From assembly GCA_963718045.1 (NCBI GenBank), contig OY970350.1, positions 360,001 to 392,000 of the forward strand: DNA of 32,000 nucleotides, written 5' to 3'. A program made the position numbers and the translations under genes. Under the pieces are notes generated by a model. It worked only from the letters and a program-made list of their open reading frames with translations, did no database searches and was not told where the DNA came from. Shown here in pieces: positions 4,064-6,779 of the stretch. This stretch comes from Candidatus Saccharimonadota bacterium. GTDB taxonomy: Bacteria > Patescibacteriota > Saccharimonadia > Saccharimonadales > UBA4665. Numbering within the stretch: the stretch's first letter is position 1; each line of letters begins with the position of its first letter.

Positions 4064-4205
4064 TCGTTCTGTTGTAATATTCTGACTCTGTTGACAAGGT
4101 CATACTATTATTAAAGTTTTGGGCTTAACATGTAGTTTGTAAAATAAAGTGACGGATTGTTTGTGTTTATTAGCCATAAACTTATGATTTACAGATTATA
4201 AAAAG

Positions 4206-4769
4206 TTAGTTAAAACTACTTTTAGGCAGATCGCTTAGCTTCGGAGTCGGGAGTTTCCCAAGTCTAAATACTGGTACTGGCTTTTCCCTGGCTGTATTGG
4301 TCTTAGTCTTTGTCTGGAATAGTCTTAACGTCTGTTTGCCTGCAGCTTTGGCTTTTTTACGTTTTTTATCTTCCTCATGTTTGCCATTTAAATCATGCTT
4401 GTGGTCAGCTTTTTCGCCGAATATAGAGTTGATACCCCGATCAAATATAGGCCCTAGCTGTTCATCTCGGGCTAGTTCTGAGCCGTGATTGTGCCCCATG
4501 CAAATCTGGGCAAATTCAATTGACTTTTGCCGCATTAAGGCCATATCATACCTTACATTATCTCTGTTAAAGAAGGATCTGTATTCATCGCGAATTTGTT
4601 CATATGTCGGTTCCGTACCATCAGCATGTCTTAGTGTCGCAATGCCAGCTAATACATTTTCTGTTCGGTCTTTTTCAGCCACATTAGCTAGCTGTCTGTT
4701 ATATCTTTCATAGAACTCAGGTGTAAGTGCCGCTGGGTCAAAAGTCGGTAATTCTAGAGAATTAATCAT
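4206..4769 (-). CDS. Hypothetical protein (187 aa), His-rich patches and Lys-rich disordered C-terminal tail
   Basis: Its ATG overlaps the stop of the upstream 292-aa ORF (ATGA, 4766-4769), implying co-translation. No TM segment or signal peptide. Motifs CMGHNHGSE and ADHKHDLNGKHEEDKKRKKAKAAGK. No family recognised. Confidence 0.6.
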   Translation of the reverse strand: MINSLELPTFDPAALTPEFYERYNRQLANVAEKDRTENVLAGIATLRHADGTEPTYEQIRDEYRSFFNRDNVRYDMALMRQKSIEFAQICMGHNHGSELARDEQLGPIFDRGINSIFGEKADHKHDLNGKHEEDKKRKKAKAAGKQTLRLFQTKTKTNTAREKPVPVFRLGKLPTPKLSDLPKSSFN

Positions 4770-5644
4770 GCCGTGTCTGCAATCCTTCTTAATTGATCTG
4801 TAAATGCTTGTTGGCCTTGCCGATCATACATAGCCTGCAGGCCCGCGCCTAAGGCTATATCGGCTGCTTGGTCATAGTATACACCATAAGCTTGCTCTTT
4901 TGGCAAGAATTTAGCAGGAATATATATGGCATCTGTTGGCTGAGTATTTCCCCAACGAAAAATTATCGGCATACCGTAGCCACTAAAGCCTGCCAGATTA
5001 TCTCCGTTTGGCTCAAATACGTTGCCTAATGTGCCATCAGTTAAGCCGTTAGCAACAGTTGTTCTTTGTCTTACCTTAAAATGAGTATGATTACCATTTT
5101 CATCGAGAATCGTGTCTTTACCAAGTGAGATAGCGCCAAGGATAGTAAAGATATCCTCATAATCTTGAACCGGAGGTTTATTGTGGCTGCCTACTCCAGG
5201 CCCTTCGGCGTGGGCTGAGCCAGCTAACATAGTAGCCACTTCAGGGGGTGGCAACAGCTCACCACCTTTGCTTATCAGCGGATAGGGAGTAACTAACGGT
5301 AATACAGATATTGATGGCCGTCTGTAGGTGCCAGTTTCATCATAGTTAGGCGATAACATTCCCATTACGGCTTTATCTTGACCTTTTCGAGCATAGACAA
5401 CCGGCCCATATAGAGCCATGGCATGAACTATGCCGAAAACTAGCCGATCACTTAACCGTAGTTCGTGCATTTGAACAGTCTCTTTAATGCCATTACCTGT
5501 ATCAGCATCAAGGGGTTCGGTCCTAAACGGACTTATTATAGGTTCGAAAATCTCGATACCCTCGACAGCTAGTCTGCTAGGGGTTGGTGTTTCAAGATCA
5601 AATGTTTCAGCACCTTGTTTACCAATGTCTAAAATTGTTCGCAT
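4766..5644 (-). CDS. Hypothetical protein (292 aa), soluble, Gly/Pro-rich, apparently beta-rich
   Basis: Long clean ORF that is first in a two-gene operon. No TM segment or signal peptide and no motif I can assign to a known family. Confidence 0.6.
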   Translation of the reverse strand: MRTILDIGKQGAETFDLETPTPSRLAVEGIEIFEPIISPFRTEPLDADTGNGIKETVQMHELRLSDRLVFGIVHAMALYGPVVYARKGQDKAVMGMLSPNYDETGTYRRPSISVLPLVTPYPLISKGGELLPPPEVATMLAGSAHAEGPGVGSHNKPPVQDYEDIFTILGAISLGKDTILDENGNHTHFKVRQRTTVANGLTDGTLGNVFEPNGDNLAGFSGYGMPIIFRWGNTQPTDAIYIPAKFLPKEQAYGVYYDQAADIALGAGLQAMYDRQGQQAFTDQLRRIADTA

Positions 5645-5675
5645 TCAAATAGCTTACACGAGAACAGTAATAGAC

Positions 5676-5690
5676 TGCAACTATGTTGCA
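5676..5690. promoter_or_regulatory. Perfect palindrome TGCAAC-TAT-GTTGCA in the divergent promoter region (candidate Fur-family operator)
   Basis: A 6-3-6 inverted repeat centred in the 66-bp gap between the 292-aa ORF (start 5644, minus) and the Fur-family gene (start 5711, plus). It is flanked by overlapping -10 boxes: TATAAT 5699-5704 (plus) and TATACT 5697-5702 (minus). Confidence 0.45.
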
Positions 5691-5710
5691 ATTAGTAGTA
5701 TAATTGTTAC

Positions 5711-6136
5711 ATGGCAACCGGAAACATAACTAAATTTAAAAAAACTCTCACAGATAACAATTACCATGTTACTAAGGCTAGAGAAGCTACTTTTAAGCTT
5801 TTAATACACTCTGAACCGCAGACAATGGCAGAAATATTAGCTAGAGCTGTGGGTGTGGACCGGGTAAGTATCTATAGAAACGTGGAATTATTCGAAAAAC
5901 TCGGTATAGTTCACCGAGTCTATGTCGGCTGGAAGTATAAATTAGAGCTTTCAGACAAGTTTATTGCCCATCACCATCACATAAGCTGTCTAAAATGCGG
6001 ATTGCTAATGGATATTAAGGACGAGAAAGAAATTGCTAATTTTATTACAGCAGTATCAGCTAAATTCGATCTTGAACCTATCCGCCATCAGTTTGAAATT
6101 GAAGGCCTGTGCGCTGAATGCCGGGCTAAACAATAA
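5711..6136 (+). CDS. Fur-family metalloregulator (Fur/Zur/PerR subtype not resolvable)
   Basis: N-terminal winged-helix (VTKAREATFKLL..., RVSIYRNVELFEKLGIV), an AHHHHISCLKCG motif and a second CAEC pair that would form the structural Cys4 zinc site. Length is 141 aa. Confidence 0.85.
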   Translation: MATGNITKFKKTLTDNNYHVTKAREATFKLLIHSEPQTMAEILARAVGVDRVSIYRNVELFEKLGIVHRVYVGWKYKLELSDKFIAHHHHISCLKCGLLMDIKDEKEIANFITAVSAKFDLEPIRHQFEIEGLCAECRAKQ

Positions 6137-6779
6137 CCCGTTTAGGACGGATCATCTGTTTAACTTTAGCGGAAGGCAAACTTAGCCGCCTTAGTCTCTT
6201 CTTTAGGTCTCTGGCTTCATCTTCCATACCGTGGTTCAGATAGGAGTTATATAAAAGAGTGTAGGTTTCTCTGTTTGGCTCTATTTCAATAGCTTTATTG
6301 AGTTCCTGGAACATTATTTTAAGATTACCTAGTTTTTCCTGAACTTTGGCGTAGGCAACGTGACGGGCAGCTAGTTTATCTTCTAGCTTTAAGGCCTGTT
6401 CGAAGGCTACAGAGGCTTTCTCGTAGTTTTCGGTCTCATAATAGATAAGACCAAGGTTATGAAGGCTGGAAGGCGTTGCTTCGATGCTGGAAGCTATTTC
6501 AAAACAGTCTATGGCGTCCTTATATTCTTTTTGCTTGGCGTATAGGATACCAAGACGGTTATAGGCAGCTACATTCTTCTCGTCAATCTTTAGAATTGTT
6601 AGTAAGGCTTTTTCAGCTCTTAGAAAGCGGTTTTCTCTCATGCCCTGGTGGGCAATATCCCATAACCGGCCGATACGTTCACCGACTTTTCTTGATACAT
6701 CAACAAACTCGTCATCGTGTATCTCTGAGTCTCTAAAAGCTAATATTCCAAACATCACTACGATTAGTAATTCGTACAT
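6126..6779 (-). CDS. TPR-repeat protein with N-terminal membrane anchor
   Basis: N-terminal hydrophobic helix MYELLIVVMFGILAF, then several 34-aa TPR-like repeats (AYNRLGILYAKQKEYKDAIDCFEIA, LHNLGLIYYETENYEKASVAFEQALKL). Confidence 0.7.
   Translation of the reverse strand: MYELLIVVMFGILAFRDSEIHDDEFVDVSRKVGERIGRLWDIAHQGMRENRFLRAEKALLTILKIDEKNVAAYNRLGILYAKQKEYKDAIDCFEIASSIEATPSSLHNLGLIYYETENYEKASVAFEQALKLEDKLAARHVAYAKVQEKLGNLKIMFQELNKAIEIEPNRETYTLLYNSYLNHGMEDEARDLKKRLRRLSLPSAKVKQMIRPKRVIV

Follow-up and report, generated by a model that had tools for sequence, protein, structure and literature searches.

A gene pair without detectable relatives and a conserved 17-bp operator beside a Fur-family regulator in Saccharimonadales

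The locus and its conserved operator

A 32,000-nucleotide stretch of a Candidatus Saccharimonadota genome (contig OY970350.1 of assembly GCA_963718045.1, positions 360,001 to 392,000 of the forward strand), called the window below and numbered from its first letter, contains two minus-strand open reading frames (ORFs) for proteins of 292 and 187 amino acids (aa) next to a divergent gene of the Fur family of metalloregulators. The two ORFs overlap by ATGA and lie 66 bp (5645-5710) from the regulator gene, as an earlier note made from the letters alone had described and the ORF list agrees; they are a real, translationally coupled operon. The note had further proposed that a Fur-family dimer bound in this gap would control both its own gene and an orphan, metal-responsive operon, and comparison with related genomes supports this as the probable arrangement. 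By computation, the genes are real and occur as a pair, an operator in the gap is conserved in sequence and position, and both Fur-family genes and zinc importers are linked to the pair. The features of the locus are listed below by coordinates, strand, and description.

4206..4769, minus strand: gene for the 187-aa partner protein (ORF call), overlapping the 292-aa gene by ATGA
4766..5644, minus strand: gene for the 292-aa orphan protein (ORF call; predicted cytosolic product)
5651..5656, minus strand: putative -10 element TAAGCT of the operon, predicted from the kept position of TAnnnT in the upstream alignment
5675..5691, no strand: 17-bp operator of 6-5-6 form, conserved upstream in all 16 lineages
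5699..5704, plus strand: putative -10 element TATAAT of the Fur-family gene, predicted from the sequence
5711..6136, plus strand: gene for a Fur-family metalloregulator of 141 aa, proposed as a Zur-like repressor (Pfam FUR, E 5.3e-12)

The pair belongs to a small family. The 292-aa protein and its relatives form 27 clusters at 90% identity, and an exhaustive search of 1.84 billion representatives returned only 29 of them at E ≤ 1e-10; the weakest matches of the representative search (P0058-P0060) were TPR or other repetitive proteins and were set aside as spurious. A scan of GTDB species representatives gave three loci, all from Candidatus Saccharibacteria or Saccharimonadales, and every named match to the pair comes from the same groups. 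This narrow distribution (about 30 clusters) limits the general reach of the findings.

In every recovered locus a homolog of the 187-aa gene directly follows the homolog of the 292-aa gene. Neighbourhoods were counted over 16 informative lineages, with the window and the L006 clade taken as one. A divergent Fur gene adjoins the pair in 12 of these (the window/L006 clade, L009, L017, L003, L012, L013, L008, L010, L019, L020, L022, and L023), down to ~40% identity of the 292-aa protein, and is not adjacent in L001, L004, L005, and L024; the synteny with the regulator, which the earlier note had named as a check on its proposal, is therefore widespread. Genomic surroundings outside this fur-pair core are variable. 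From these comparisons, a Fur-family repressor in a subset of Saccharimonadales (Patescibacteria) appears to have this operon as its most constant target.

Alignment of the upstream regions, with the operon placed on the plus strand, revealed a conserved 17-bp element of 6-5-6 form, TTGCRA-N5-TTGCAA. The window copy reads CTGCAA-CTATG-TTGCAA on the plus strand and TTGCAA-CATAG-TTGCAG in the orientation of the operon. In 16 of 16 lineages, the four with no Fur gene alongside among them, the element ends 29-31 nt before the ATG of the 292-aa gene. The perfect palindrome TGCAAC-TAT-GTTGCA (5676-5690), to which the earlier note had drawn attention, is present; it is the inner part of the 6-5-6 element plus window-specific complementary bases. 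What persists in all orthologous upstream regions is the 6-5-6 element, whereas the 6-3-6 core is peculiar to the window, and the note was right to warn that such cores arise by chance (11 in the window versus 9.2 ± 3.5 in shuffled sequences). The functional unit would be the 17-bp element rather than the 6-3-6 core.

The element is strongly enriched at the pair. In 153 kb of non-redundant related DNA we found 19 sites with at most one mismatch, versus 0.55 expected. Of these, 15 are the primary sites of the 292-aa gene, and two more are second copies in tandem with a primary site; of the remaining two, one stands in front of an importer gene and the other at the 5' end of a fur coding region. 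The 32-kb window holds a single site at up to 2 mismatches (5675-5691), and the adjoining ~7 kb of the source contig on the left side (L025) contain only chance-level 2-mismatch sites. In Streptomyces coelicolor, DNase I footprinting has defined a Nur box with the consensus tTGCaa-N5-ttGCAA, likewise of 6-5-6 form (PMC2691836). The window site and 15 orthologous sites match its layout. The Mur box of alpha-proteobacteria, a 19-bp palindrome, has a similar TGCAA-N5-TTGCA core, so that the metal cannot be told from the box by itself.

The promoter layout is equally constant; it was read from positional conservation, and consensus strength plays no part in it. In all 14 aligned upstream regions TAnnnT stands 6-7 nt before the ATG with a box half-site 17-18 bp further upstream; in the window TAAGCT lies 6 nt before the ATG of the 292-aa gene and the proximal half-site 18 bp upstream of TAAGCT. 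Because this spacing is conserved and no Shine-Dalgarno sequence is visible before the divergent genes, a leaderless promoter is suggested. The earlier note had pointed to the hexamers TATAAT (5699-5704) and, on the minus strand, TATACT (5697-5702); both are present, but an operon promoter with TAAGCT as -10 and the box half-site as -35 is more likely than one built on TATACT upstream of the box. In the Fur-adjacent loci the fur ATG lies 19-20 nt from the box and has its own TAnnnT 6-7 nt upstream; in the window TATAAT stands 6 nt before the ATG of the Fur-family gene, and the box ends 7 nt upstream of TATAAT. With this layout, one bound dimer would occlude both promoters. The result is a bidirectional promoter-operator unit packed into about 66 bp, with its layout kept across lineages.

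The same elements could be read as promoter architecture only, TTGCAA-N5-TTGCAA being a -35 plus an upstream element to which no Fur-family protein binds, with the adjacency of fur a matter of synteny. The proximal half-site does lie exactly at the expected -35, and TTGCAA resembles TTGACA. Nevertheless, we consider this reading very improbable: the distal half-site is equally conserved, is held in a fixed 11-bp register, and forms a dyad with the proximal one; the element is essentially absent from the other ~150 kb examined, which contain many other promoters; it recurs before importer genes; and it matches a footprinted Fur-family operator.

Properties of the two proteins

Neither protein could be assigned to a family, as the earlier note had found by eye, and neither has a transmembrane segment (maximum Kyte-Doolittle 19-mer scores of 1.38 for the 292-aa and 0.32 for the 187-aa protein). 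Searches with Pfam, NCBIfam, PHROGs, and PADLOC on both proteins and on every member of the family alignments gave nothing credible; a UreD match (E 0.008) and a match to RHA1_ro05818_N, each in one family member, are noise. Sequence-profile searches of the PDB with three alignments gave nothing below E 0.08. Pfam, NCBIfam, PDB sequences, and Foldseek likewise showed no homology of the pair to P-loop GTPases (CobW), FolE2, or ribosomal paralogs.

The 292-aa protein is acidic (pI 5.0) and lacks Cys. It is rich in Gly (10.6%) and Pro (7.5%), as noted before, but not beta-rich: the AlphaFold2 model built from the family alignment (pLDDT 87.5, pTM 0.87) is mixed alpha/beta, with 39% helix and 20% strand. 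A Foldseek comparison of this model with the PDB and BFVD gave no match (best E 0.25, TM ≤ 0.15), and the novelty of the fold is judged relative to these two collections only. An encapsulin/HK97 shell, considered as an identity for a subunit of ~290 aa, was rejected on the same result despite the pTM of 0.87, and FolE2/YciB-like and phage tail identities for the pair were ruled out by the lack of a Foldseek match. The widest alignment shows a set of invariant or near-invariant polar residues (S98, E147, H154, D161, E163, H/D164, H186, H188/189, and R192) located in and around one helix-loop-helix segment. The motif MLAGSAHAEGxGxGxH..D.E is encoded at nt 5153-5230, and H186-R192 at nt 5069-5089. 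Judged from this conservation, the cluster of carboxylates and His looks like a metal site or an active site.

The 187-aa partner is basic (pI 9.25). Its order is a helical N-terminal domain, a His/acidic linker, a poly-Lys/Arg stretch, and usually a short aromatic patch. C90, its single Cys, is invariant and H93 is near-invariant, forming the motif C-x2-H-x-H (CMGHNHG, nt 4482-4502). The linker is rich in His, Asp, and Glu (e.g. HEHEHERE or HDHDSADEH), and a patch rich in Trp and Phe follows in 15 of 20 partner sequences (e.g. GWF, WLGWFV, or LGLWALA). Two features that the earlier note had seen in the translation, i.e. the His clusters GHNHG and HKHDLNGKHEED and a Lys-rich tail, are confirmed, the latter by the composition of the tail as a poly-Lys/Arg stretch. 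The AlphaFold2 model has a pLDDT of 65 with a helical core at residues 56-117, and neither Foldseek against the PDB, nor PDB sequences, nor Pfam returned a match. The tail resembles peripheral membrane-binding segments, which suggests membrane association; binding to nucleic acid is an alternative. One partner homolog (P0068, L019 7001-7462) carries the JGI name 'thiamine pyrophosphate-dependent acetolactate synthase large subunit-like protein', which has no Pfam support and looks like a misannotation.

The partner's weak PHROG match, a tail assembly chaperone (E 0.019), is noise. Together with the variable neighbourhood outside the fur-pair core, it would fit a mobile, phage-derived, or defence module that landed beside fur. 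We give such an origin practically no weight: neither PADLOC nor the BFVD fold search gave a match, the surroundings contain no integrase, repeats, or phage genes, and across lineages the operator is kept and importers are linked to the pair. Translational coupling and the opposite net charge of the two proteins (pI 5.0 versus 9.25) suggest that the 292-aa and 187-aa proteins form a complex.

The regulator and its metal

The regulator belongs to the Fur family by PF01475 (Pfam FUR, 46.4 bits versus a cut-off of 23.1, residues 17-130) and by its motifs: the two CxxC pairs (C93/C96 and C134/C137) of the structural Zn site in the C-terminal dimerisation domain and the His-rich regulatory motif HHHH87-90 are invariant in nine aligned regulators. 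It also carries H126; H33 is present only in the clade of the window. The nickel-site residues H70 and H72 of Nur align to R69 and Y71, in a region that is variable across the family, and of that site the H126 equivalent alone is kept.

Links to metal importers come from the relatives. L019 carries two identical copies of the 17-mer TTGCAACAAATTTGCAG, one in front of the pair and the other in front of the gene that comes next; this gene encodes a substrate-binding protein (SBP) and is followed by an ABC ATPase gene. This SBP, with a His-rich loop, best matches AdcA (3e-71) and YcdH of Bacillus subtilis (5e-70), versus 1e-38 or weaker for Mn/Fe binding proteins. Further lineages have a ZIP gene beyond the pair: in L020/L021 it overlaps the gene of the partner, in L010 it begins 16 bp past that gene, and in L003 and L022 it comes after the pair with a 2-mismatch box of its own. 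In L012 (3755-5522) an ArsP_1-type permease (PF03773) and a DUF1980 protein are encoded after the pair, behind a weak box (2 mismatches); they are a candidate for an uncharacterised metal importer of the same regulon. Literature searches linking zinc to DUF1980 or COG0701, or Zur to Saccharibacteria, found nothing relevant. Overall, a divalent-metal importer lies directly behind the pair in 6 of 16 lineages, and the clearest one is zinc-specific. Importers of the ZIP, ABC, and permease types all accompany the pair, so no single transporter has it as a dedicated subunit.

Repression by Zur works through occlusion of the -35 region, which Zur boxes often overlap, and Zur regulons comprise importers together with cytosolic accessory proteins, a picture that the present arrangement fits; canonical Zur boxes are AT-rich palindromes of 7-1-7, 9-1-9, or 23-bp form (PMC6103462). 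The site conserved here, TTGCRA-N5-TTGCAA, does not have such a form. In L019, L003, and L022 it does lie upstream of zinc-uptake genes, as a Zur operator would. The Nur regulon (sodF and nik transporters) was not found at these loci, where the neighbours and box-bearing genes encode ZIP proteins, an AdcA-type ABC importer, and the ArsP_1 permease. Because the same operator precedes AdcA/ZnuA-type and ZIP importers, and ZIP genes are joined to the operon, the signal is most likely zinc, by comparative genomics in the relatives. Of the metal- or peroxide-responsive unit envisaged in the earlier note, the metal part stands and zinc is favoured, given that the box precedes importers in relatives; peroxide is less likely. 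We file the regulator as a Fur-family protein only, one that would work like Zur through a Nur-type operator.

Proposed role, rival explanations, and neighbouring genes

We propose that the pair is a zinc capture and trafficking complex, induced by starvation, within a Zur-like autoregulated regulon that uses a Nur-type operator, and we hold this to be the probable role. A metal-loaded repressor dimer would bind the 17-bp operator at 5675-5691, which would overlap the -35 region of two back-to-back, probably leaderless promoters. Binding would shut off the repressor gene and the operon together, and metal depletion would release both. The 292-aa and 187-aa proteins would then form a cytosolic complex that binds and traffics zinc in starvation, with the partner capturing metal near the membrane importers and passing it to the 292-aa protein or holding it with that protein. 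The pair would thus be functionally analogous to Zur-regulated metallochaperones.

Several points weigh against this proposal. The regulator scores 60 bits with the NCBIfam model for Fur, 42 with PerR, and 20 with Zur, all below the cut-offs, so that by this measure it is not Zur-like (the Zur model NF008646 gave 20.4 bits versus a cut-off of 167). Among PDB sequences it matches the nickel sensor Nur best (3EYY, 6.6e-10), with a Fur practically level, and the operator equals the Nur box. No importer gene with the box occurs in the ~39 kb sampled from this genome (the window plus L025), so the zinc link comes from relatives only. ZIP transporters are not strictly zinc-specific, with Fe, Mn, and Co among their possible substrates. 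Metal binding by either protein, which is probable, is read from conserved residues alone; the model of the partner is of low confidence (pTM 0.36); and the promoter elements fit the sigma-70 consensus poorly, the consensus scan having left them unscored.

The operator layout and half-site identical to the Nur box, the 3EYY match, the Fur model as the best NCBIfam score, and the range of metals carried by ZIP proteins would all agree with a regulator that senses nickel (Nur-like), iron (Fur), or manganese (Mur-like), the operon then being part of that metal's starvation response. This is an unlikely explanation, and clearly so: H70 and H72 of Nur are replaced by R69 and Y71 and not kept in the family, no nik-type transporter or sod gene lies near any locus, and the one ABC importer that follows an identical box has a His-rich loop and clearly belongs to the AdcA/YcdH type for zinc.

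The main rival accepts the same regulation and assigns the pair a different function. The 292-aa protein would be a zinc-independent replacement enzyme (using Fe, Mn, or no metal) and the 187-aa protein its maturation or activating subunit. Zinc-sparing replacement proteins are common in Zur regulons (PMC6103462). The invariant Glu/Asp/His/Arg set in the compact, confidently modelled 292-aa protein resembles a catalytic site, and the occurrence with three importer types suits a protein that is not part of any one transporter. However, known zinc-sparing proteins are recognisable paralogs, whereas the 292-aa protein has no detectable homolog, and no substrate or pathway neighbours are conserved. 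We regard a replacement enzyme as unlikely, and zinc capture and trafficking remains the role that we prefer.

Comparison with known systems separates what is familiar here from what is new. As in the Zur regulons of B. subtilis (znuABC/ycdH and yciABC) and S. coelicolor, a proposed Fur-family repressor has a palindromic operator over the -35 region, the operator precedes zinc importers (AdcA/YcdH-type SBP and ZIP) and cytosolic accessory genes, and the regulator appears autoregulated, with its gene near its targets. Unlike those regulons, the operator is of the 6-5-6 TTGCAA type, the regulator falls below the Zur model cut-off, and no known Zur target, be it a COG0523 GTPase, a ribosomal paralog, FolE2, or another, is related to the accessory proteins. 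S. coelicolor Nur (3EYY; PMC2691836) shares the 6-5-6 operator consensus, the His cluster (86-90), both CxxC motifs, and the Y-R of the recognition helix, and is the best PDB sequence match; it differs in having the H70/H72 nickel site, which is lacking here, and in its sodF and nik targets, where the neighbours here are zinc importers. The COG0523 proteins (ZagA/YciC and ZigA), UreE, HypB, and the tails of SlyD resemble the pair by analogy only, as cytosolic, His-rich proteins with Cys/His motifs that are, or in the case of the pair would be, co-induced with importers in metal starvation. In contrast to COG0523 proteins and His-rich chaperones, the pair has two components, lacks a P-loop GTPase domain, and shows no sequence or fold similarity to them.

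The regulatory logic is known, i.e. a Fur-family repressor with a palindromic -35 operator, autoregulation, and a starvation regulon. The operator type is unusual for an apparent zinc regulon, and the new elements are effector proteins without known relatives, the larger of which has no structural relative in the PDB or BFVD. Metal-starvation regulons are well known, but they include few kinds of cytosolic effector, namely COG0523 GTPases, ribosomal paralogs, and replacement enzymes. In an ultra-small, host-dependent bacterial lineage, the most conserved Fur-family target would be a protein pair without sequence relatives. If the pair handles zinc, it would be a new solution to intracellular metal allocation and a handle on metal scarcity in episymbiotic Patescibacteria. 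Only tentatively do we suggest a two-component cytosolic zinc-acquisition or metallochaperone system of new fold that fills the role of COG0523 in the reduced genomes of Saccharimonadales, under a Zur that has kept or converged on a Nur-type operator. A Nur-type operator apparently in zinc control is a natural example for the evolution of DNA and metal specificity in the Fur family; if it does serve a Zur, operator type and metal specificity would be uncoupled within the family.

Other genes near the pair vary among the lineages. In the 86%-identical relatives L006/L007 (7599-8304), two extra genes stand 3' of the pair compared with window positions 4064-4205, one a 91-aa ORF and the other coding for a retropepsin-like Asp protease (PF13650/PF13975), so that these close genomes differ by a small indel. 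Three lineages (L003 3050-4135, L010 2440-3501, and L020 8325-9380) have an RmuC-family gene no more than a few kb from the fur-pair-ZIP cluster, in two of them directly after the ZIP gene, which may be plain synteny. A UbiA-family prenyltransferase adjoins the pair in some lineages (L004/L015 7538-12873; L013 2876-3907). In L004 the neighbours of the pair further include a heme-copper oxidase cluster (COX1-4) and a YibE/F protein, so an aerobic terminal oxidase is encoded by these Saccharimonadales.

Within the window, the Fur-family gene and a convergent TPR-repeat gene (6126-6779, minus strand) share 11 bp (6126-6136) at their 3' ends. A tRNA cluster at 1913-2217 consists of tRNA-Thr(GGT) on the minus strand followed by tRNA-Thr(TGT) and tRNA-Tyr(GTA) on the plus strand. 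In the source contig a ribosomal L33 gene without a box (L025 8919-9125) lies just left of this cluster. A PemK/MazF-type toxin gene is located ~7 kb left of the window start (L025 3729-4327), and the small ORF upstream of it probably encodes its antitoxin.

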